Of a DNA stretch of 32,000 bases, positions 1 to 14,855 are shown piece by piece. The DNA is from Candidatus Scalindua sp. (GTDB taxonomy: Bacteria; Planctomycetota; Brocadiia; Brocadiales; Scalinduaceae). Location: assembly GCA_031316235.1 (NCBI GenBank), contig JALDRA010000001.1, positions 2,850,001 to 2,882,000 of the forward strand, given 5' to 3'. Below the pieces are notes generated by a model that was not told where the DNA came from, did no database searches, and saw only the letters and a program-made list of their open reading frames with translations. How positions within the stretch are numbered: position 1 is the first letter of the stretch; each line of letters opens with the position of its first letter. The translations under genes and the position numbers were made by a program.

Positions 1-996
1 TGCAAAATAGCCGTCACTGTCTTCAATCAGAAACCGGGACTGGTTCCTCATCTGTAAATCCTTACCAATAAGGTACGTCTCACCCGACTCTCCCAGGCCC
101 ACACCCTTCCAGTCGTTACCTGATGTCATGACCTGGTTAATCTTATCTATGGGCATCTGGAATAACAGAACACCGACCTTCCTGGAACCATCATATATGG
201 GTGATGCGATAAAGCTTGCTGCACCCTCATAGGATGGCGGATACGGTTCGAAATCTTCCAGTTTTACATAATTTGGATTGCTGCTGTTATTCGCTTCACG
301 GAAGACCCTGCCCAGATTGGTCCCCGCATATGGTCCATCCTTCAAAGAGGTGGTAAAGTCTAATTCTTTATATACGCTATAGACGATGTCACCACTATCA
401 GGGTCGACGAGAAATATGTCATAATACCCGAACTGTTCAAGGAAGTCCCTTATGACAGGATGATATTCTGCGTGAATCCTGCTATAGGTTGACCTGTCAT
501 CTGCATAATCGAGTTTGTGTTTCTCTCCGAGTTGATTATGGTTCTCCTTTATGTACACATACTGCAGTGCTATTGAATCGTCATCAAGTTGATTGAGATA
601 GCTGGCTGTCTGGGGGACCTTGCCGTTATTCTGGTTTCTGTATTCTGCAGCAAAATCTCCTGTGTAATAGGACTTCAGGGATGAACGATACTCTTTTAAC
701 TGAGAGTCAGTAAGTTCATTTTCCTTCTGGAACTCTTTAAAGGCGACCTTGAACTCCTTCATCGCATCAACGACCATCTTGTTTCCGGAAAAGGTGTGCA
801 CCTGTTTCCTTATGGTAGTAAAGTAGTCTTCTATCTGTTTTTTTTTTGTTTCCCGTACCGAAACAAGCTGGTTAAATGCCTGCTTCTGCAGAGATGTACT
901 TGCGCTTCTGTTCCCGAGGATTCCCATAACGACAAAGGGTATTATCCCTGCCACGAGAAACAGGGTAATAATCTTTATTCCCATTCCCATTTTCAT
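1..996 (-). CDS. Transmembrane sensor, N-terminal part (signal anchor plus periplasmic double-Cache-like ligand-binding domain). Probably a methyl-accepting chemotaxis protein whose C-terminus lies left of the window.
   Basis: Not in the ORF track because it runs off the window. The reverse strand is open for 332 codons from ATG (996-994) to base 1, with AAGGAG about 11 nt upstream. The translation MKMGMGIKIITLFLVAGIIPFVVMGILGNRS...QLVSVRETKKKQIEDYF...YDIFLVDPDSGDIVYSVYKELDF...GESGETYLIGKDLQMRNQSRF has the pattern of Cache_3-Cache_2/dCache receptor heads. It is the last gene of the che operon, directly after cheW. Confidence 0.75.
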   Translation of the reverse strand, partial: MKMGMGIKIITLFLVAGIIPFVVMGILGNRSASTSLQKQAFNQLVSVRETKKKQIEDYFTTIRKQVHTFSGNKMVVDAMKEFKVAFKEFQKENELTDSQLKEYRSSLKSYYTGDFAAEYRNQNNGKVPQTASYLNQLDDDSIALQYVYIKENHNQLGEKHKLDYADDRSTYSRIHAEYHPVIRDFLEQFGYYDIFLVDPDSGDIVYSVYKELDFTTSLKDGPYAGTNLGRVFREANNSSNPNYVKLEDFEPYPPSYEGAASFIASPIYDGSRKVGVLLFQMPIDKINQVMTSGNDWKGVGLGESGETYLIGKDLQMRNQSRFLIEDSDGYFA

Positions 997-1078
997 AGTT
1001 TACTTTTCTCCTTCTTGGTAGAACCACTGCAAAAATAAAATTAGATGATAAAAACCAGAATACCTGACTGAGATGTTA

Positions 1079-1558
1079 TTACGCTAACTGCTCAACCATC
1101 TCCAACTCATCAGTCGATAGTATCTCGTTGATATCGAGTAGAATGATAATCTTATTTTTTGCCTTACCCAGCCCCATAATAAAGCTCGTATCTATACCGT
1201 GTCCGAATTGCGGAGTATCTTCTACCTCTCCATTCTTGATATCAAGCACCTCAGAGACATTGTCAACCACGACGCCAATCGGCGCATTATTCACCTCAAC
1301 GACGATTATACAGGTCTCTTGTGTATGCTCTACTTCCGGCATCGAGAACTTGAGCCGCAGATCTATTATGGGGATAACCTTACCCCGTAGATTAATGACC
1401 CCTCTCAGGTAATCCGGGGTCTGTGGTACCGGCGTAATGCCGATAACGCCAATGATCTCTCTTACCTTGAGGATCTCGATACCGTACTCTTCTTTGCTGA
1501 GGATAAAAGTCAGAAATTTACCTTCATCAACTATATTTTTTTGTACCGCTGCTTCCAT
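1079..1558 (-). CDS. cheW: Chemotaxis coupling protein CheW
   Basis: 159-aa single CheW-like domain: KFLTFILSKEEYGIEILKVREIIG...PDYLRGVINLRGKVIPIIDLRLKF...IIVVEVNNAPIGVVVDNVSEVLDI. Lies immediately downstream of cheA. Confidence 0.95.
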   Translation of the reverse strand: MEAAVQKNIVDEGKFLTFILSKEEYGIEILKVREIIGVIGITPVPQTPDYLRGVINLRGKVIPIIDLRLKFSMPEVEHTQETCIIVVEVNNAPIGVVVDNVSEVLDIKNGEVEDTPQFGHGIDTSFIMGLGKAKNKIIILLDINEILSTDELEMVEQLA

Positions 1559-1683: not shown

Positions 1684-3711
1684 TTACGCTGCAAGCGCTG
1701 CCTCTTTGATTCCACTTACGTCCAATATTAATCCGACCTTTCCATCACCCAGTATTGCACCACCTGAAATACCTTTGACGCCTTTAAATGTGTCCCCGAG
1801 ACTTTTTATGACAACCTGCTGCTGGCCTAACAGTTCGTCAACCAGTATGCTGAATTTCCCTTCTTCAGTTTCCACAATTACAACGATAGCTTCCCATGGA
1901 TTTGTCTTTTTCGTATCAATATTGTAAAGCTTATGGAGACGAACAAGAGGAAAGAGATTCCCTCTCATATTCACGACTTCCCCCTGATTCTTTATGGTAC
2001 TGATTTCTTCCTTTCTGGGACGTAACGATTCTGAGATGGAAATAGTTGGTATAATGTATTTGGTGCTGCCTACGTTGACTACTATTCCATCAATGATTGC
2101 AAGGGTGAGCGGGAGTTTGATGGTAAATGTGGAGCCCTTCCCCTCTTCTGATGTTACGTCGATCTTACCACGAAGTTTTTCGATGTTCTTCTTCACTACA
2201 TCCATGCCTACTCCACGGCCTGAAATATTAGTGATCTTTTCTGCTGTAGACAGACCCGGTGAGAAGATTAGATTGTATATCTGGTTGTCACTCATTACAG
2301 AATGTTCTTTAACGAGGCCTTTATCTATGGCTTTATTAAGTATCTTCTCCTTCTGCAGCCCTGTGCCATCGTCCTCTATTTGTATTATAATATTTCCTCC
2401 CTTGTGATAGGCGCTCAGCTTAACTGCTCCTTTTTTTCTCTTACCACTGGCAATCCTCTTCTCTTCCGATTCAATTCCGTGATCTACCGAGTTTCTTAAG
2501 ATGTGAACGAGTGGGTCTGCGATTACTTCAATGACGTTCTTGTCAAGTTCAGTATCCTCACCTGAGATTATGAGCTCTACCTCTTTATTCGCATGCATGG
2601 ATACATCTCTAACCAGTCTCGACATCTTCTGAAATGTCTGTTTTAGTGAAACCATTCTCATAGACATTACCTGATCTTGAATATCCTTGGTTATCTTACT
2701 CAGGTGAGAGAGATTTTTGTTCGACCCATTCTCATTGTTACAGCCGTACTTCAGATCTCCTGATATCAAGGTGTTTGCTATTACCAGTTCACCCACGAGA
2801 TCAAACAGGTTGTCGAGTTTGTCTGTATCAACTTTAACGGTTCTCGATTGTTCTTTTCTGGCCTGTCGAGTTTTCAGTGCATCTTCTATATTTTCTTGCG
2901 TTGTAACTCCATTATCTACTAATATCTCCCCGACTTTACGTTTTTGTTCTTTTATGGCCTCTTGGAGTTGTTGCTCTGTAAGAGTGCCGTTTTTGACAAG
3001 AATTTCTCCTACAGGCTTCCACAGACTCCTTTTTTGCTCTTCGATAGCCTTGTCGATAAAATCCTGGGATACTGTTCCATTTTCTATGAGGATCTCACCC
3101 AGCTTTCTGCCTTTTTCTTTGAGAGCCGTATCAAGTTGTTCCTGAGTGATAATGGAATTTCTTACCAAGAATTCACCAATATGTTCATTCTCAGTGATAT
3201 GGTCTTCTCTTTTATATTGTGCGGACTGTGGTTGAGTATCTGTTTCTCCATTAAGCATGGTTAATATGCGGTTAATGATTGGTTGTATGTCTACTGATTG
3301 CTCATGTGTGGAAGACGCTGCATCGTCTTTTCCTCTTAATGTCATATCTACTTTGACAGAAAGAGTATCTCTGAGTGTCCTGAGAATATCAATTGAGTCG
3401 AGACATAAGGTTGTTATTTTCTTGGTAAATGGTATTTCACCCTTCCTTGCCTTATCAAGCAGTGTTTCAAGTTCATGACTGAGTCTCTGAATATCGGTGA
3501 GCCCCAGGAATCCAGCACTTCCCTTTATGCTGTGGATGCTTCTGAATATGGCATTGATCAGTTCATAGTCCAGGTTCTCATTGTCAATACTGAGAATATT
3601 GCTTTCTGACTCTTCAAGATGGTCTTGTACCTCAGACAGAAACTCCAGGAATATCTCCGAATCATCCTTAATATCAAGTGTAAATTCATTGGTCTCCGGG
3701 TTGCCGTTCAT
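1684..3711 (-). CDS. cheA: Chemotaxis histidine kinase CheA with an atypical insert of T2SSE_N/MshEN-like repeats between P1 and P3
   Basis: HPt P1 with phospho-His (IHSIKGSAGFLGL). P3 dimerisation segment (VKVDTDKLDNLFDLVGELVI). HATPase N box (HILRNSVDHGIE), G1 (DDGTGL) and G2 (GRGVGMDVV). C-terminal CheW-like P5. Residues 177-283 are four LGEILxxNG-type repeats instead of a recognisable P2. Confidence 0.95.
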   Translation of the reverse strand: MNGNPETNEFTLDIKDDSEIFLEFLSEVQDHLEESESNILSIDNENLDYELINAIFRSIHSIKGSAGFLGLTDIQRLSHELETLLDKARKGEIPFTKKITTLCLDSIDILRTLRDTLSVKVDMTLRGKDDAASSTHEQSVDIQPIINRILTMLNGETDTQPQSAQYKREDHITENEHIGEFLVRNSIITQEQLDTALKEKGRKLGEILIENGTVSQDFIDKAIEEQKRSLWKPVGEILVKNGTLTEQQLQEAIKEQKRKVGEILVDNGVTTQENIEDALKTRQARKEQSRTVKVDTDKLDNLFDLVGELVIANTLISGDLKYGCNNENGSNKNLSHLSKITKDIQDQVMSMRMVSLKQTFQKMSRLVRDVSMHANKEVELIISGEDTELDKNVIEVIADPLVHILRNSVDHGIESEEKRIASGKRKKGAVKLSAYHKGGNIIIQIEDDGTGLQKEKILNKAIDKGLVKEHSVMSDNQIYNLIFSPGLSTAEKITNISGRGVGMDVVKKNIEKLRGKIDVTSEEGKGSTFTIKLPLTLAIIDGIVVNVGSTKYIIPTISISESLRPRKEEISTIKNQGEVVNMRGNLFPLVRLHKLYNIDTKKTNPWEAIVVIVETEEGKFSILVDELLGQQQVVIKSLGDTFKGVKGISGGAILGDGKVGLILDVSGIKEAALAA

Positions 3712-3728: not shown

Positions 3729-5924
3729 TTAAAAGTCTCTGAAATTCTCATCATATTCTTTGAAAGTATCTTCTCCCATTGGTATTACTGAAGTTTCATC
3801 TTCATAGCGATATCCGTTCTTTTCCTGAGTTTGTAACGGTGATTTATGTTCTGTTGATGACAGATTATTGGTGTGGGAGAGGTTTCTTTTAGGCCTATAT
3901 TGCCTTTTGTGTCTCTTTATACTTATATTATGATCAGGTATTCTCTTTTGTATTCGTTTCCGGTACTCGGTGTTGGAATTATCACAACCTCCAACCTGTT
4001 CTGATAATATCTTGACCTGGTCAAGCAGTGTTTGTGACTGTGCAGACATCTCTTCACTTGCCGCAGCAGTCTCTTCAGCATTGGCTGCATTCTGCTGGGT
4101 TACCTGGTCCATCTGGTTAATGGCTTGACTCACCTGGTCTATTCCACCAGCCTGTTCGTCAGATGCCGTAGCGATCTCTTCTATGAGGATGGTTACCTTC
4201 TTTACGTTGGTCACGATGTTGGCTAACACCTCCTTACACTTACCAGATAACTCTGTACCCGCATTTGCCTTTCCAACACAATCTTCAATCAATTCCGTAG
4301 TATCTTTTGCCGCAGCAGAACTCCTCTGTGCAAGATTTCTGACCTCTTCAGCCACTACGGCAAACCCTTTGCCATGCTCTCCAGCCCTGGCAGCCTCTAC
4401 TGCGGCGTTCAAGGCAAGGAGGTTGGTCTGGAATGCTATGCCGTCTATTACCTTGATGATATCGCTGATCTTTTTACTGCTATTGTTAATGTCGAGCATC
4501 GCATCGTTCATCTCGTGCACAGACTTGCTCCCTGACTCTGCCGTATTGTTGCATAGAGAGGCGAGTTGGGAGGCCTCTTTTGCATTATTGGCATTTTGTT
4601 TTGTTGTTGATGACATCTCTTCCATGGTTGCCGAGGTCTCCTCGATAGCAGAGGCCTGTTCTGATGCCCCTTGTGCCAGACTCTGGCTTGAGGATGATAT
4701 CTGACCCGATGCAGACGCAACCTGTTCAGCTCCTTCTCCGAGTTTGGCACTCAGTTCTCGCAGGAATGTGAGTAATGGACGTGCAAAGAAAAACCATCCG
4801 AGCCCTATCACCAGGCAGACAAGCCCCAATGATCCACCTTGAACCCACATCAGCATTATCGTTTTATCCGCTGAACTGACCTGGTACATATTAACTGCCT
4901 CATCTATTCCATTCATGGTTGCATTGGCACTGTCATAGGCAATACCATAAGCAGCGATATACTCTGCAGAATTCGGCTCTACCTTTGTCAGTGTGCCAAA
5001 ATTTTCTTGTGTCTTCTCCCACAACTGCTTCACTTCGTTGAGCTTGCTGCGGATTGTACCGTCTTCTGCGGGAGAGAGTGTCGCAAAGCTTGTCATTTCG
5101 AGATCAAGCGGTGCCTCCCCGCCATTGATGAGCGCGGAAAGGGTTGTATCAAACACTCTTTTTGTCTTGAGAAAAGATCCTGCACCAAACTCTTTCTCTC
5201 CGGAATCCGCAAAGAACGCCTCTGTTTCCGCACTTACCGTACCTATAGGGATGTTGACCACAAGTATCCCCATAACCTCTCCTAATTTAAAGTCTTTCTT
5301 GGGACTCTCTTCATGTGCATTATGGCAACTTACGCAACCATTAGCTGACGCGACATCAGCGGTTGCGTAACGAAGGGTGTAGATGCCATCGTGGACCATG
5401 AAACGGGAGAATGATTTGCCATTTTTAGAATAGAGATAGTCAAATGCCTCCTTCTCAAAATCAGTTTTGAGCCCTTTTTCTCTGTTTATATTCCACTTGC
5501 TCAGGAGGTTATAACTGTAGACACCTTTCTCATTTATACTGGCGGAAACTTCCTGAACAAAGGTTGCGGGGAGGGGAATGCCTCCATCAATCCTGGCGTA
5601 ATCCCTTTCTGGATGGACGTCTAGAACGCCGTCCTTTTTCAGCTTTGAGATGATGTTATCTGTATATTGTTTCCGATCTTCCACAATCTGGAGTGTTGCG
5701 ATTTCAGCAGTCTTCAGGGTGCTGTGGCGGACCTGCCGTGGAATCAGTTCATCAAGGTATTCTTTCGTAAATTTCTGAGTCAGCATGCTCTGCCTGCCAG
5801 CCAGATTGACCGTCTGTCTATCTTTTTGCTGACCGCGGATAGTCTTGAATACAAAAAATGCACCAGTCAATACGGTGACAAAGAATATTGAAAAAACTAA
5901 TGCAAACTTTCTTCCTATCGTCAT
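3729..5924 (-). CDS. Methyl-accepting chemotaxis protein with a periplasmic c-type-heme sensor domain (DUF3365/Tll0287-like) nested in a PilJ-type helical module
   Basis: N-terminal TM segment. [13 protein letters not shown] (PilJ/NarX-like P-box signature). CVSCH heme-c attachment motif at residues 197-201 (nt 5322-5336) within ...[47 protein letters not shown]. Second TM near residues 357-381. Conserved MCP hairpin [37 protein letters not shown]. Confidence 0.93.
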
Positions 5925-6086: not shown

Positions 6087-7082
6087 TCAAAATAAAACAT
6101 CCTGTTTTTTTCTGAATTTATATCTGTTCATTTTCTGTAAGAGTGTTGCCTTTGTAAATGGTTTTACCAAGAAATTCTTTGCTCCAGCTTCTAATGAAGT
6201 GATTACCGCACTTTCAGTTGGTTTGGAAGATGTCATGATGATGGGGATGCTTTTCGTATATGGTGTTTTTTTTATCTTTTTGCATATTTCTATGCCACTT
6301 TGTTCCGGCAAGGTTAGATTCATCAGTATCAGGTGTATTTTTTCCTTGTGCAGAAGGGTGAAGGTTTCGTTTGCATTATTCGTAACAAGTGGTTTGAATT
6401 CAGTATTGGCCAGATATCTTCTTATTATTTTGATATCGGTAACAGAGTCGTCTAGTATTAAGACATTCGTGGTTTTGTCATGTATCTGTTCTCCAAAGAA
6501 ATCTTCAACCAAATCTATCTGCATGAATATATTGAAATTTCCGGTTTCAAAGCCCTTTATCAACAGGAGAGAGGAGAGTTGCAGATAATCGTCACTGGAC
6601 AGGTCTGGAAAAATATCTTTTGCGGTTTCTCCGTTTATCGATGTACAGGTAGAGAGCTTTATGTGAACAGGTTTTGGCAATTTATTTCTAAACACGTTGT
6701 CAATTATTCCTGTGAACTGGTTTCCGAACTCTTTCAGACCGTCAGTGCAATCTTCATCGATTTCTTCTTTTTCTATTTTCTCCTTTATCTGAGTGTCATC
6801 GTATCCCAGAAGTGAACCTCCTATCTTGATACCGTCTTTTATCTGCATGAGAGTGCAGATGTATCCGGTGTAGGAGTCCTCAATTTCTGATTTAATTAAA
6901 AAAAATTGACCTGTATTGGCGGTAAAAAATTTTTCAAGAGTTATGATGTTGAAATTTGGTTTAGAGATACCGATATTTCTGCCAATAAGTTTAGTACAAT
7001 CTTCATTTAATTTGCTTAATGTATGATCTATCAGAGATTTCATTCTTGGAGGACAAATGATCGATTCAGTAGATGTGTTCAT
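6087..7082 (-). CDS. CheC/CheX-like domain fused to a C-terminal receiver domain that has Asn at the phospho-acceptor position
   Basis: N-terminal ~200 aa carries one D-x3-E-x2-N motif (DGLKEFGN, residues 114-121), as in CheC/CheX/FliY active sites. The C-terminal REC has the acidic pair (ILDD), T/S (IIMTSS) and Lys (LVKPF). However, beta3 reads HLILMNLTLPEQSG, with N255 (nt 6318-6320) where Asp is expected. Confidence 0.8.
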   Translation of the reverse strand: MNTSTESIICPPRMKSLIDHTLSKLNEDCTKLIGRNIGISKPNFNIITLEKFFTANTGQFFLIKSEIEDSYTGYICTLMQIKDGIKIGGSLLGYDDTQIKEKIEKEEIDEDCTDGLKEFGNQFTGIIDNVFRNKLPKPVHIKLSTCTSINGETAKDIFPDLSSDDYLQLSSLLLIKGFETGNFNIFMQIDLVEDFFGEQIHDKTTNVLILDDSVTDIKIIRRYLANTEFKPLVTNNANETFTLLHKEKIHLILMNLTLPEQSGIEICKKIKKTPYTKSIPIIMTSSKPTESAVITSLEAGAKNFLVKPFTKATLLQKMNRYKFRKKQDVLF

Positions 7083-7145: not shown

Positions 7146-7688
7146 TTAACTTTTTTCGTGGTTTATTTTCATGCCGACATGAAAAGTACCTTCCGCTGAT
7201 GAAAAAGGAAATATCACCCACATGTTCTGATTATTAGCAGGTTTCACGTACAAAGGGGAGTGCGTGCACTCTCCATTTTCTCTGCTTGAAGATGAAATGG
7301 TCATATCGGTTCCTGCAACTACTAAAGGGACCGCTAAATGCATTGTCCCAAGATCGGTGTAAACTCTATTTTTCAAATTGCCCGCAATCATATTTGTTAC
7401 TTCTCCAATGGCATCTTTGGTGTCATGGTCTAGTTCAAAAGTATCAATTCCCAACATGAGAGACGTGATCTTGAGTGCGATTTTCCTGCTGCAGAACAGA
7501 GCGATAATGCCGGAATGTTCACCCGAAAAACTGACCAGAGACATGACCTCTTCCTGAATATCTTTTTCCTCGCGGTTAAACACTTTTCCAGACTTTATTT
7601 CCAAAGGTATCATTGTAGAAAATATTTCATACGTGGAATCTATAATTTCTTTTTCAACCGTCTCAAATAATGTTGATGTCGTTTTCAT
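7146..7688 (-). CDS. cheX: CheY-P phosphatase CheX
   Basis: 180 aa. Single CheC-family active-site motif DAIGEVTNMIAGN (D92-x3-E96-x2-N99) followed by Pro about 22 residues later (HLAVPLVV). Size and single-site layout fit CheX. Lies between cheY and the CheC-like fusion. Confidence 0.85.
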   Translation of the reverse strand: MKTTSTLFETVEKEIIDSTYEIFSTMIPLEIKSGKVFNREEKDIQEEVMSLVSFSGEHSGIIALFCSRKIALKITSLMLGIDTFELDHDTKDAIGEVTNMIAGNLKNRVYTDLGTMHLAVPLVVAGTDMTISSSSRENGECTHSPLYVKPANNQNMWVIFPFSSAEGTFHVGMKINHEKS

Positions 7689-7815: not shown

Positions 7816-8193
7816 TCAGTTTATCATGAGATATTTACCAAGTGTATCTCTTAGCTGTGCAGCAGTAAATGGTTTGGTAATATAATCGTTGGCTCCACTA
7901 TCCTTTGCTTCTGTCTTTTTTGCATCTGATCCTTCGGTAGTCACCATAACAACTGGTATCTTCCTGGGAAGATTTAATGACCGCAGTGTCTTTACAAATT
8001 CTATACCCGACATAGTAGGCATGTTCCAATCGCATAAAATTAAATCCAATTCATTTGCAGAGACTTTTTCCAGGGCCTGTGCCCCATCTCCGGCTTCTAC
8101 AAATTCATTAACAATTAAGCCTGATTCTTTTATGTTCCTTTGTATTATCTTTCTCATTACAGCTGAATCGTCAACCAATAGGACTTTTGACAT
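7816..8193 (-). CDS. cheY: Chemotaxis response regulator CheY
   Basis: 125-aa stand-alone receiver: VLLVDDSAVMRK, DLILCDWNMPTMSG (acceptor Asp), VVMVTTEG, YITKPF. Confidence 0.95.
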   Translation of the reverse strand: MSKVLLVDDSAVMRKIIQRNIKESGLIVNEFVEAGDGAQALEKVSANELDLILCDWNMPTMSGIEFVKTLRSLNLPRKIPVVMVTTEGSDAKKTEAKDSGANDYITKPFTAAQLRDTLGKYLMIN

Positions 8194-11619: not shown

Positions 11620-13017
11620 ATGAGTGACAGTAAGAGCGGTCATGAGACTGGAAGTCAGGCAGGAGTAAAGCCAGTAATCCTTGTAGTTGATGATGAGGAA
11701 ACCATCAGGTCCTGTTTAAAAGAGGCTCTGGAGGGAGAGGGTTATAAGGTCTATATCGAAGAGAATGGGAAAAATTCCTTAAGTTTAATAAAGAGGGTGG
11801 TTCCTGATTTAGTTTTGGTGGATTTAAAAATGCCGGGTATGAATGGTATTGATCTGTTGAGAGAGGTAAAATCTCTTGATCGGAATATCCTCGTAATTCT
11901 TTTAACCGGGCATGGTTCTGTTGATACAGCGGTAACTGCTATTAAGGCGGGCGCCTTTGATTATTTGGAGAAACCCTTTAAAATCGAGCATATCAAGGTC
12001 GTTGTCGGTAAGGCCTTAAGTACTCAATCTTTAATGAGGGAAGTGATAAGGCTCAGGGAAAAAGCTGGTGTTATTGGGATTGAAAATGTAATTGCTGTCA
12101 GTAAAGAGATGAAGAAGGTCTTTGAACATGTCAAAATAATAGCGGAAAGCCCATCAAGCACGGTATTGATCCAGGGGGAGAGTGGAACAGGAAAAGAATT
12201 GATTGCGAATTATATCCATACGATGAGTTCTCGGAGTAATTACAGATTTGTTGATATAAATTGTGCTGCTTTGACAGAAAATTTGCTTGAAGCTGAGTTG
12301 TTTGGTTATGAAAAAGGAGCTTTTACGGGTGCTTCTTCAACAGGTAAGTCCGGTTTGTTTGAGGTCGCACAAAGGGGATCTATATTTCTTGATGAGATAG
12401 GTGAAATGAGTATGCCCTTACAGGCTAAATTATTAAGGGCATTACAGGAAAAGAGGTTCAAAAGGGTGGGGGGCATAGATGATATAGATGTGGATGTGAG
12501 GATAATAGCCTCAACCAATAGAAATTTGGAAGAAGAAGTGGATAAAGGTCAATTTAGAAAGGATCTCTACTATCGCTTAAAAGTTTTACCCGTGTATTTA
12601 TATCCTCTGAGGGAGAGGAAGGATGATATTGTTCCTCTTGCAAAATCCTTTGTGCACAAGTTTAATAACGAATTTAAAAAGAAGGTCAATACTATAACCT
12701 CGGAAATAGAAGGAATCCTGGTGAATTATGATTGGCCTGGTAATGTCAGAGAATTAAAAAACGTGGTAGAACGGGCAGTTCTCCTTTCAAGCACAAACAC
12801 GCTTTCTGCTGAGCATATATTATTAGGGAATGTATTTAGTAAGAAAAATGAGGCTGAAGATACGATAACAGATCTCTCTATTTCTGCTGTCGAGCAGAAA
12901 CATATAACGAAAATCCTTAAGGAAACATCATGGAGAATGACAAAAGCTGCTAAAATTCTGGGTATCAACCGTACCACTTTATACAACAAGATTAAGCAAT
13001 ATAATTTAAAACAGTGA
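11620..13017 (+). CDS. Sigma54-dependent response regulator (NtrC family: REC + AAA+ + Fis-type HTH)
   Basis: REC with DLVLVDLKMPGMNG. Walker A GESGTGKE. Sigma54-contact loop EKGAFTGAS. WPGNVRELKN. C-terminal HTH MTKAAKILGINRTTLYNKIKQY. GGAGG lies 10 nt upstream. Confidence 0.95.
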   Translation: MSDSKSGHETGSQAGVKPVILVVDDEETIRSCLKEALEGEGYKVYIEENGKNSLSLIKRVVPDLVLVDLKMPGMNGIDLLREVKSLDRNILVILLTGHGSVDTAVTAIKAGAFDYLEKPFKIEHIKVVVGKALSTQSLMREVIRLREKAGVIGIENVIAVSKEMKKVFEHVKIIAESPSSTVLIQGESGTGKELIANYIHTMSSRSNYRFVDINCAALTENLLEAELFGYEKGAFTGASSTGKSGLFEVAQRGSIFLDEIGEMSMPLQAKLLRALQEKRFKRVGGIDDIDVDVRIIASTNRNLEEEVDKGQFRKDLYYRLKVLPVYLYPLRERKDDIVPLAKSFVHKFNNEFKKKVNTITSEIEGILVNYDWPGNVRELKNVVERAVLLSSTNTLSAEHILLGNVFSKKNEAEDTITDLSISAVEQKHITKILKETSWRMTKAAKILGINRTTLYNKIKQYNLKQ

Positions 13018-13207: not shown

Positions 13208-13690
13208 GTGGAGGTATTTGAAAAAAAACTGGGAGAGATCTTGATTGATGAAGGGAAAGTCTGTTTGGAGGATGTGAAATCTGCTTTATCAATCCAAAAA
13301 AAAAGTTCTCAGCATAAACTTTTAGGTGGAATCTTAATCGAGCTAAGTTTGATTTCAAAGGATGATTTGGCTCTTGCGTTGAATAGGCAGCTTCTGTATA
13401 CATCAGAAACAAATGCGTTGGGTCTGGATTTAAGTGATGATGATAGAATTAAGAAAATTGCAGATAAATATCGGGGATCTGAATATTTTGAAGAGTTAAA
13501 CGAGTTGATTGGTGTGATAACTCACAAGATACGCAATCCATTGTCCGGTATTTCTGCTGCCGTTGAGGTTCTTCGAGAAAAAGTTGGGGTCAGCGATGTA
13601 AATGAAAAGTTCTTTAAGATGATTTTTAAAGAAATAGATAGTTTGGAAAAAGTAGCAAAAAATCTTTTCAGGGAATTTTCTCACAAGTAA
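13208..13690 (+). CDS. Small signalling protein: N-terminal T2SSE_N/MshEN-like domain plus a HisKA (DHp) module with H-box, no ATPase domain
   Basis: GTG start 5 nt after AAAGGAG. KLGEILIDEGKVCLEDVKSALSIQ and LLGGILIELSLISKDDLALALNRQ fit the 24-residue MshEN motif. LIGVITHKIRNPLSGISAAVEVL is a HisKA H-box. The protein ends at 160 aa with no N, G1 or G2 boxes. Confidence 0.8.
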   Translation: MEVFEKKLGEILIDEGKVCLEDVKSALSIQKKSSQHKLLGGILIELSLISKDDLALALNRQLLYTSETNALGLDLSDDDRIKKIADKYRGSEYFEELNELIGVITHKIRNPLSGISAAVEVLREKVGVSDVNEKFFKMIFKEIDSLEKVAKNLFREFSHK

Positions 13691-13715
13691 TATTTGGTAA
13701 TTGGGAAACCGGTAC

Positions 13716-14855
13716 ATGAACTTCAGAATTCTGTTGGTGGATGACGAGGAAACGCTCAGGTCTGTTTTACAAGAGACCCTGGCTGGAGAAGGCTATAGTG
13801 TTGATGTCGCAAATGATGGCTTTCAGGCTCTGGAACGTTTCAAGATCACATCATATGATTTACTTATTACCGATGTAAGGATGCAAGGCATGGATGGTTT
13901 ACAACTTATCCGTGAGATTAAGAAAAATGGCCTGCCGGTAAATGTTATTATGATTACCGCATACGGTTCTGGAGAGGCTATAAAAGAAGCAATGCGGCTG
14001 GGTGTTGTGGAATTATTTAATAAACCATTTAAACTGCAGGAAATAAAAGACGCAATAACGAGAATACTGAACCGTATTTTGCATGAAAAAGGAAAGAATT
14101 CCATTTCTTCAAGAGCAGAAAACCGTGAAGAACTATCCATAGCAGATTCTCTTTTGGTACCTGCAGGTTTGTCGTATTATGTAGGAGTACCGGGAAATCA
14201 ACAATGGAATACAGCAGTTTTTGATTTTGTTGCCAGAAACAGTAAAAAGGCTTTGGCCATATTTGGAAATATTCATAGCAGGGCTGAAAGGCCTGGTGAA
14301 TGGTGGGATAACAGGCAGATAACAATAATGATTCAGACTCTCTTTAGGTCTAATATGAAGAGTACTCCAAGAAAAATTGTATCGGTAATTAATGATTTTC
14401 TGTCGAGAAATATTTTTCCGCATGTTGAGGTTTCAATACTCTGTCTTCTGGTAGATGTGAAAAAGAGTGAGATCCGGTATGTACATTATGGAAGCAATCT
14501 GGTGTGTTCTGTTTTTTCTCCCGGTGGGAAGATTGAAATCTTGGAATCCTGTCCTGTTTTGCTGGGTGTATCTCCAGGGGTTGAAATATGCGAGAGTTCG
14601 ATGACATATGGTGATGAAAACCAACTGATGTTGCTGGGTTGCAATTCGATAACAAGTGTTGCAGAAAGAGAGTCGCTTTTGAGACAAGCAGTTGATGTCG
14701 TTTTGTTGTCAACGAGATATAATCAAAGAATACAATTGAATAAGGAAGCCTTCAGATCACGGATTGCGAATAAGAAAGAGGCAGACTTTGATGATGAAAC
14801 GTACGTATTGATGAATCTTGATTGGGATGATACCGTGAGTTTCGCACAAAACTAA
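13716..14855 (+). CDS. Response-regulator receiver fused to a degenerate SpoIIE/PP2C-like domain
   Basis: REC: ILLVDDEETLR, DLLITDVRMQGMDG, VIMITAYG, LFNKPF. The C-terminal half aligns by eye to SpoIIE blocks: VFDFV...LAIFGNIHSR; VSILCLLVDVKKSEIRYVHYGSN; PVLLGVSPG...GDENQLMLLGCNS. The usual DVSGHG and TDG Asp residues are absent. Start taken at ATG 13716; the ORF-track TTG at 13701 is possible. Confidence 0.8.
   Translation: MNFRILLVDDEETLRSVLQETLAGEGYSVDVANDGFQALERFKITSYDLLITDVRMQGMDGLQLIREIKKNGLPVNVIMITAYGSGEAIKEAMRLGVVELFNKPFKLQEIKDAITRILNRILHEKGKNSISSRAENREELSIADSLLVPAGLSYYVGVPGNQQWNTAVFDFVARNSKKALAIFGNIHSRAERPGEWWDNRQITIMIQTLFRSNMKSTPRKIVSVINDFLSRNIFPHVEVSILCLLVDVKKSEIRYVHYGSNLVCSVFSPGGKIEILESCPVLLGVSPGVEICESSMTYGDENQLMLLGCNSITSVAERESLLRQAVDVVLLSTRYNQRIQLNKEAFRSRIANKKEADFDDETYVLMNLDWDDTVSFAQN

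Follow-up and report, generated by a model that had tools for sequence, protein, structure and literature searches.

Fusions of the chemotaxis histidine kinase CheA with the MshEN_N module, which binds cyclic di-GMP (c-di-GMP), have been catalogued before (Wang et al. 2016, Nat Commun 7:12481, Suppl. Tables 4 and 6), and a fragment of the Aeromonas veronii CheA, residues 261 to 390, bound c-di-GMP with a dissociation constant (KD) of 2.6 µM (Wang et al. 2016, Suppl. Table 6). In this study, a CheA encoded in a 32,000-nucleotide stretch of a Candidatus Scalindua sp. genome (GenBank assembly GCA_031316235.1, contig JALDRA010000001.1, positions 2,850,001 to 2,882,000; this whole stretch is called the window) was examined, in which four MshEN-type motifs lie between the phosphotransfer domain P1 and the dimerization domain P3. 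A preliminary description of the window had raised possible c-di-GMP input into CheA. The module proved to be real, and the proposed c-di-GMP input is supported as a hypothesis, but the implied novelty was overstated, since the fusion was catalogued in 2016 with one binder. The CheA-MshEN_N architecture is already known, and the window CheA is a new duplicated, short-spacer, P2-less example in the Planctomycetota, a phylum for which Wang et al. (2016) did not list it.

The closest comparison is the Aeromonas CheA, whose MshEN_N module also lies directly before P3. As aligned, its motifs start with Met and Lys, and position 1 is a residue other than Arg in both proteins. Because the Aeromonas motifs begin in this way, Arg at position 1 is dispensable in a proven CheA binder. 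The second Aeromonas motif, KLGEILIAQGAVSEAVVDAALKKQ, has 13 of its 24 residues in common with the second motif (R2) of the window protein by hand count. In contrast, P2 is kept in the Aeromonas protein, whose single module of two motifs has a spacer of about nine residues, whereas the window CheA lacks P2 and has four motifs separated by 2, 6, and 2 residues. In the published CheA-MshEN_N architecture the module stands between the phosphotransfer part and H-kinase_dim, and the window protein agrees with this, with its motifs at residues 177 to 282 and P3 from residue 289; the position of the module before P3 was the same in 32 CheAs from other phyla. The published single module is, however, preceded by a CheY-binding P2 (Wang et al. 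2016), while two modules and no P2 were found here.

Outside CheA, the N-terminal domain of Vibrio cholerae MshE (5HTL) consists of two tandem 24-residue motifs that form a four-helix bundle, as is predicted for the window CheA. MshE differs in its 5-residue spacer, its Arg at position 1, its C-terminal alpha/beta subdomain MshEN_C, and its partner, which is a type II secretion/type IV pilus ATPase and not a histidine kinase. The GSPII domains of Thermus thermophilus PilF (8PDK, 6F8L) gave the best sequence match, have Lys at position 1, and provide several MshEN modules in tandem; unlike the modules of the window CheA, they are full GSPII domains more than 100 residues apart in a pilus ATPase. 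Tandem MshEN_N without MshEN_C, as in the window CheA, is known from (MshEN_N)2-CheX (Geobacter lovleyi Glov_2742) and (MshEN_N)2-REC-ACyc (MXAN_7396). The former is also a fusion to a chemotaxis component, although the partner in the (MshEN_N)2 fusions differs from that in the window protein, and no biochemical characterization of such fusions was found in the literature searched. CdgR was considered as a possible (MshEN_N)2 protein and was ruled out because its fold is unrelated. PilZ-based inputs, such as MapZ-CheR1 and PilZ chemoreceptors (e.g., Cbp1, PMC6454048), have the same proposed logic of c-di-GMP modulating chemotactic signaling, but with an unrelated receptor fold and with a methyltransferase or receptor as the target rather than the kinase, as proposed for the window CheA.

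The four-motif segment of CheA

The cheA gene and the features of its product are as follows, all on the minus strand.

1684..3711 (-): cheA open reading frame, 675 residues; P1(HPt)-four MshEN motifs-P3-P4-P5
3418..3651 (-): HPt/P1 core, residues 21 to 98; Pfam PF01627, E 1.5e-14
3112..3183 (-): MshEN motif R1, residues 177 to 200; HIGEFLVRNSIITQEQLDTALKEK
3034..3105 (-): MshEN motif R2, residues 203 to 226; KLGEILIENGTVSQDFIDKAIEEQ
2944..3015 (-): MshEN motif R3, residues 233 to 256; PVGEILVKNGTLTEQQLQEAIKEQ
2866..2937 (-): MshEN motif R4, residues 259 to 282; KVGEILVDNGVTTQENIEDALKTR
2659..2847 (-): P3 dimerization domain, H-kinase_dim (Pfam), residues 289 to 351
2104..2517 (-): P4 ATP-binding kinase domain, HATPase_c (Pfam), residues 399 to 536
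1708..2088 (-): P5 CheW-like domain (Pfam), residues 542 to 668

The window protein was 100% identical to a Candidatus Scalindua sp. CheA, and its other relatives were from Scalindua and further Brocadiales (anammox Planctomycetota). It is a CheA histidine kinase with respect to P1 with its phosphorylation site, P3, P4, and P5: the Pfam matches to Hpt, H-kinase_dim, HATPase_c, and CheW were each above threshold, and in the translation the phospho-accepting His of P1 lies in the motif H60-S-I-K-G, corresponding to the H-x-x-K-G site. The NF007835 model of CheA covered residues 18 to 669 with an E value of 1.6e-141, its score of 473 bits lying below the equivalog cutoff of 793. The P2 domain, which docks CheY and CheB, was the one CheA component missing. 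At E ≤ 1, no Pfam match to P2 or to a CheY-binding domain was obtained in the window CheA, residues 100 to 176 had no relative in the PDB, and the stretch from the end of the P1 bundle to the first motif is only about 50 residues long. P2 is therefore absent, as the preliminary description had noted in finding no recognizable canonical CheY-docking fold, and the MshEN module occupies its usual position. Among other CheAs that contain an embedded MshEN module, one from Desulfovibrionales had a weak match to a CheY-binding domain, and several have a gap of about 140 to 156 residues that could hold P2.

The region 2863..3183, which corresponds exactly to residues 177 to 283, had been read in the preliminary description as four T2SSE_N/MshEN-type motifs between P1 and P3, and its coordinates, sequences, and spacers were all reproduced. 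Each motif is 24 residues long, and the spacers are GR (2 residues, R1-R2), KRSLWK (6 residues, R2-R3), and KR (2 residues, R3-R4). The motifs were compared with the strict published motif, RLGxx[LVI][LVI]xxG[LVI][LVI]xxxx[LVI]xxx[LVI]xxQ, which has 11 fixed positions, and with the relaxed version used by Wang et al. (2016) for database and genome counts. R1, R2, R3, and R4 agreed with the strict motif at 7, 9, 8, and 7 of the 11 positions, respectively, so that R2 and R3, with Lys or Pro in place of Arg, are the best-fitting repeats, as had been proposed. Both also have Thr at position 11, and R3 has Val at position 2; the complete list of strict mismatches is K1 and T11 for R2 and P1, V2, and T11 for R3. 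Against the relaxed motif, every one of the tandem copies agreed at 10 of the 11 positions, deviating once each. Four segments reaching at least 10 of the 11 relaxed positions were thus observed, compared to 0.02 expected per shuffled CheA (2,000 shuffles).

A curated family model also recognized the segment. The NCBIfam model NF053729 (“c-di-GMP_motif, MshE-related,” 53 positions) scored 94.7 bits against a cutoff of 38, with an E value of 2.1e-27, and matched CheA twice, at residues 178 to 226 (R1R2) and approximately 234 to 281 (R3R4). A weaker NCBIfam match was to the C-terminal c-di-GMP domain of NfrB, and in Pfam only a subthreshold match to DUF4388 was seen. Searching PDB sequences with phmmer returned Thermus PilF as the best match (E 1.2e-16), together with PilB, PilF-GSPIIB, and V. 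cholerae MshE; with a profile of 43 orthologous segments, Thermus PilF reached an E value of 6e-25. Chance similarity and a low-complexity coiled coil were ruled out by the NF053729 E values and the shuffle test.

The preliminary description had suggested a structure prediction, and the segment model obtained was MshEN_N-like. The AlphaFold (AF2) model of residues 167 to 294, based on a multiple-sequence alignment of 43 sequences, had a predicted local distance difference test (pLDDT) score of 75 and consisted of eight helices alternating between short and long, which fits the expectation for four helix-turn-helix motifs. When whole CheA was modeled from its single sequence, the pLDDT was 36 and the model was unusable. 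In a Foldseek search of the PDB with the predicted model, each of the top 11 matches to its four-helix unit was a c-di-GMP-bound structure of MshE (5HTL) or PilF-GSPIIB (8PDK and its mutants), with root mean square deviations (rmsd) of 0.7 to 1.0 Å over 55 to 59 columns and a probability of 1.00. The top match was 5HTL (rmsd 0.8 Å over 55 columns, 33% identity), and 8PDK was matched at 40% identity over 58 columns (rmsd 0.8 Å). The four-helix bundle of two helix-turn-helix units expected of MshEN_N is therefore present in the predicted structure. According to DSSP assignment of the model, the long helix of R4 extends to residue 289, where the Pfam match to P3 starts. Taken together, the curated hidden Markov model, the PDB sequence searches, and the predicted fold show the segment to be homologous to the MshEN_N c-di-GMP-binding module.

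Conservation, duplication, and distribution of the module

Conservation was assessed in 43 orthologues of <88% identity. Gly3 was present in 43/43 orthologues in all four motifs, and positions 2, 17, and 21 were aliphatic in at least 41/43 in every motif. Gln24 was found in 39 to 42 of the 43 in R2, R3, and R4 and was variable in R1, so that the ligand-contact residues of MshEN_N are retained with this one exception. At position 1, R2 and R4 have Lys, most R3 motifs have Pro, and most R1 motifs have an aromatic residue. In MshE, the Gly3 backbone amide reads O6 and N7 of guanine, and the substitutions G11L and G40I abolish c-di-GMP binding while leaving the variants stable (Wang et al. 2016). 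Because such variants are stable yet nonbinding, the conservation of Gly3 is not simply explained by folding, and the pattern was taken as evidence that a ligand site has been retained and that the motifs are more than a helical spacer.

The number of motifs varies among the 120 closest homologues, with four in 87, two in 27 (e.g., Brocadia, Loosdrechtia), three in 5, and seven in 1. R1 and R3 have the signature “G.IT.EQL” in common, while R2 and R4 have “G.TT...I” in common, and in the two-motif orthologues P3 is immediately preceded by one motif of each type. This identifies the four-motif state as a duplicated two-motif module. At the DNA level, only short matches, likely due to chance, were found under the motifs. 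Since no DNA-level repeat is left, a recent slippage artifact was ruled out as the origin of the repeats, and the duplication is old and has been kept by selection.

The module is not confined to this group. When GTDB species genomes were scanned with the family alignment, 333 relatives were confirmed, and the best 80 loci were kept and classed by phmmer with the window’s own P1, P3-P4, and P5. CheAs with an embedded MshEN module accounted for 32 of these best 80 of 333 loci. They came from Brocadiales, Desulfobacterota (Desulfobacterales, Desulfovibrionales, Desulfuromonadales, and Syntrophobacteraceae), Spirochaetes, and others, including Deferribacter abyssi, a Pseudobdellovibrionaceae metagenome-assembled genome (MAG; Bdellovibrionota), Dissulfurispiraceae, and an actinomycete MAG. 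The distance from the module end to P3 in the 32 CheAs was 6 to 45 residues (mostly 6 to 22), and the gaps from P1 to the module included both P2-sized and short ones. Start-to-start spacing of the motifs in embedded CheA modules was either 25 to 26 residues (spacers of 1 to 2) or 30 to 31 residues (canonical spacers). Searching 1.84 billion representative proteins with the 107-residue segment returned 2,668 proteins at E ≤ 0.001, many with 4 to 10 motifs. The window protein thus belongs to a broad set that is largely uncharacterized, and its own features are not unique.

Two further arrangements were observed in these searches. Five CheAs from Desulfovibrionales, Dissulfurispiraceae, and other groups (L053, L071, L075, L044, and L050) combine a P2-sized gap with two motifs that are only one residue apart (...Q-K-P-[LI]-G...). 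A different arrangement, in which the HPt domain is repeated and an array of 2 to 4 MshEN motifs comes after each copy to give 7 to 10 motifs in total, was seen in a 901-residue open reading frame of a Hydrogenedentota MAG (L013) and in the representative proteins P0122 to P0125, P0130, and P0135 (782 to 1,184 residues). No CheA kinase core (P3-P4-P5) was detectable in the latter group, including L013, and this architecture was not found in the table of Wang et al.

Proposed mechanism and rival explanations

From the homology, predicted fold, conservation, and genomic context obtained in this analysis, the explanation we favor, and regard as reasonably probable, is that residues 177 to 282 form a duplicated, c-di-GMP-binding MshEN_N module that replaces P2 in the P1-P3 linker and feeds c-di-GMP onto kinase output. 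That the short-spacer version in the window binds c-di-GMP, and that binding has any effect on the kinase, we infer by analogy. The four helix-turn-helix motifs would assemble into four-helix c-di-GMP-binding units, in which an adjacent motif pair would clamp one c-di-GMP, with the Gly3 backbone amides and the aliphatic positions 2, 17, and 21 contacting the guanines and Gln24 contacting ribose and phosphate. Each monomer could hold one or two c-di-GMP ligands. Binding would order the helical tether into rigid four-helix units, and the ordered tether might alter the reach or orientation of P1 toward the P4 ATP site and/or the geometry of the P3 dimer. The cellular c-di-GMP level would in this way act directly on the CheA output of a flagellum-linked chemotaxis pathway. 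As a more tentative proposal, the short-spacer tandem array may work in place of P2 as a functional, possibly cooperative, multisite sensor of c-di-GMP, with direct gating of CheA autophosphorylation or of P1 delivery.

Several findings weigh against the favored explanation. None of the four motifs passes the relaxed published regular expression, each failing at one position, and positions 1 and 24 of R1 depart from the conserved residues. The spacers of 2, 6, and 2 residues (1 to 2 in most orthologues) contrast with the 5-residue spacer of the characterized 53-residue domain, and no tested short-spacer module was found in the searchable literature; the caution that the preliminary description attached to the noncanonical spacer length was justified, and this stays the main uncertainty. 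PF05157 (T2SSE_N), whose absence was to have spoken against the module according to that description, had no Pfam match at E ≤ 1 with either the whole protein or the segment. However, because PF05157 models the full T2SSE_N (MshEN_N plus MshEN_C), its absence was judged uninformative and the test invalid: R4 ends 6 residues before P3, leaving no space for the alpha/beta subdomain MshEN_C, and Wang et al. (2016) list the CheA fusion under the heading “MshEN_N only, no T2SSE_N1 domain.” The Foldseek E values were only approximately 0.06 to 0.3, as the unit is so short. Signals for motif pairing were split, with the sequence and Foldseek identities favoring R2+R3 and the comparative data favoring R1+R2 and R3+R4. 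Finally, the literature search found no CheA study showing an effect of c-di-GMP on kinase activity, nor any paper later than Wang et al. (2016) on how c-di-GMP acts on a CheA.

The main rival, which we consider unlikely, is that the segment is a degenerate MshEN_N-like helical unit that binds no nucleotide and serves as a structured tether or docking surface between P1 and P3 in place of P2, resembling the N-domain of XpsE/GspE with lost c-di-GMP binding. Wang et al. (2016) give XpsE as one example of the many MshEN domains in which binding has probably been lost, and the module in the window sits in the position of a docking domain. Besides the failure to pass the relaxed motif, its spacers are shortened to 1 to 2 residues, Arg1 is replaced in all four motifs, and Thr is found at core position 11 or 12. 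The residues through which XpsE lost binding (G11V, G40L, L54H, L58C, and Q61V; Wang et al. 2016) are, however, at positions conserved in the window family, which has Gly3 in every motif without exception and also conserves positions 17, 21, and 24. Nor does the lack of Arg1 point clearly to lost binding, as the proven Aeromonas CheA binder also lacks it, and PilF-GSPIIB has Lys1, with its K167L mutant still crystallized in the bound form.

The split in the pairing signals bears on a different reading, also rather improbable in our estimate, in which only R2+R3 (residues 203 to 256, with the 6-residue spacer) form a canonical MshEN_N site holding one c-di-GMP per monomer, while R1 and R4 are flanking helical hairpins. 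The phmmer alignments of MshE (5HTL) and PilF-GSPIIB to residues 199 to 258 coincide with this pair, the 40% identity of 8PDK over 58 columns corresponds to approximately 23 identities for R2+R3 versus approximately 17 for either of the other pairs (hand count), conservation of positions 1 (K, P) and 24 (Q, Q) is highest in these two motifs, and in the window subclade their 6-residue spacer is near the canonical 5. In most four-motif orthologues, however, the R2-R3 spacer is a single Lys and is no longer than the others, and in two-motif orthologues (Brocadia and others) the only pairing available is that of an R1-type with an R2/R4-type motif across a 2- to 4-residue spacer. NF053729 likewise calls two domains, R1R2 and R3R4, and the family profile aligns the PDB proteins to either R1R2 or R2R3. 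It is highly improbable that the module binds another cyclic dinucleotide instead, such as 3'3'-cyclic GMP-AMP (cGAMP). The V. cholerae MshEN domain does bind cGAMP weakly (0.33 mM), but with an approximately 600-fold lower affinity in this characterized domain (Wang et al. 2016). Through its backbone contacts, Gly3 recognizes O6 and N7 of the guanine in each half of the ligand, and no evidence of cGAMP signaling was seen in this analysis.

Returning to the favored reading of a duplicated c-di-GMP-binding module, the known c-di-GMP inputs are PilZ adaptors acting on the motor, on receptors, or on CheR. If binding occurs, c-di-GMP would act directly on the central kinase of the flagellar chemotaxis pathway. 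The more tentative multisite sensor, if real, would be the first case in which direct action of a second messenger on the chemotaxis kinase is demonstrated, and in anammox bacteria it would tie flagellar chemotaxis to the change between aggregation and motility that c-di-GMP drives; the c-di-GMP-dependent aggregation of these organisms is of applied interest (review PMC13188143). The duplicated, short-spacer, P2-less form also provides a natural test of how long a spacer the 53-residue domain requires and of whether the module can take over the P1-P3 linker.

Neighboring genes and other features of the window

The operon containing cheA has the gene order cheY-cheX-REC protein-mcp-cheA-cheW. 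Around it and farther into the window, the following features were identified.

1079..1558 (-): cheW, downstream of cheA in the same operon
3729..5924 (-): methyl-accepting chemotaxis protein (MCP) with a Tll0287-like sensor domain, immediately upstream of cheA
6087..7082 (-): 331-residue protein with a C-terminal receiver domain, in the che operon
7146..7688 (-): CheX-type CheY-P phosphatase
7816..8193 (-): single-domain CheY response regulator
13208-13690 (+): open reading frame of 160 residues with a second MshEN_N module, KKLGEILIDEGKVCLEDVKSALSIQ-KKSSQHK-LLGGILIELSLISKDDLALALNRQ; NF053729, 41 bits against a cutoff of 38

The genes fliF, fliG, fliH, fliI, motA, and motB lie 16 to 28 kb from cheA on the opposite strand, and with flagellar genes nearby the pathway is likely that of flagellar chemotaxis. 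The sensor domain of the MCP was matched by PF11845 (E 5e-16) and contains a CxxCH motif (CVSCH), which suggests a c-type heme redox or gas sensor feeding the che pathway. The N-terminal 200 residues of the 331-residue protein matched no Pfam or NCBIfam family.

In the 160-residue protein, the MshEN_N module is followed by a DHp/HisKA-like H-box (ITHKIRNPLSGI) with no ATPase domain. Its gene lies between those for a sigma54-activator response regulator (11620-13017) and a REC-PP2C/SpoIIE phosphatase (13701-14855). It may represent a second c-di-GMP input in the same neighborhood.

No RNA family was detected in the window with Rfam. Downstream of cheW, approximately 1.08 kb (window positions 1 to 1078) contained no convincing open reading frame, the longest being an 80-residue low-complexity GTG frame, and had no Rfam match. 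The GC skew of the window was negative up to 6 kb and approximately zero from 6 to 8 kb; from 8 kb onward it was strongly positive, reaching +0.30. This change coincides with the switch from the minus-strand che genes to the plus-strand regulatory and flagellar genes and may reflect transcription strand bias or a replication-related skew boundary.

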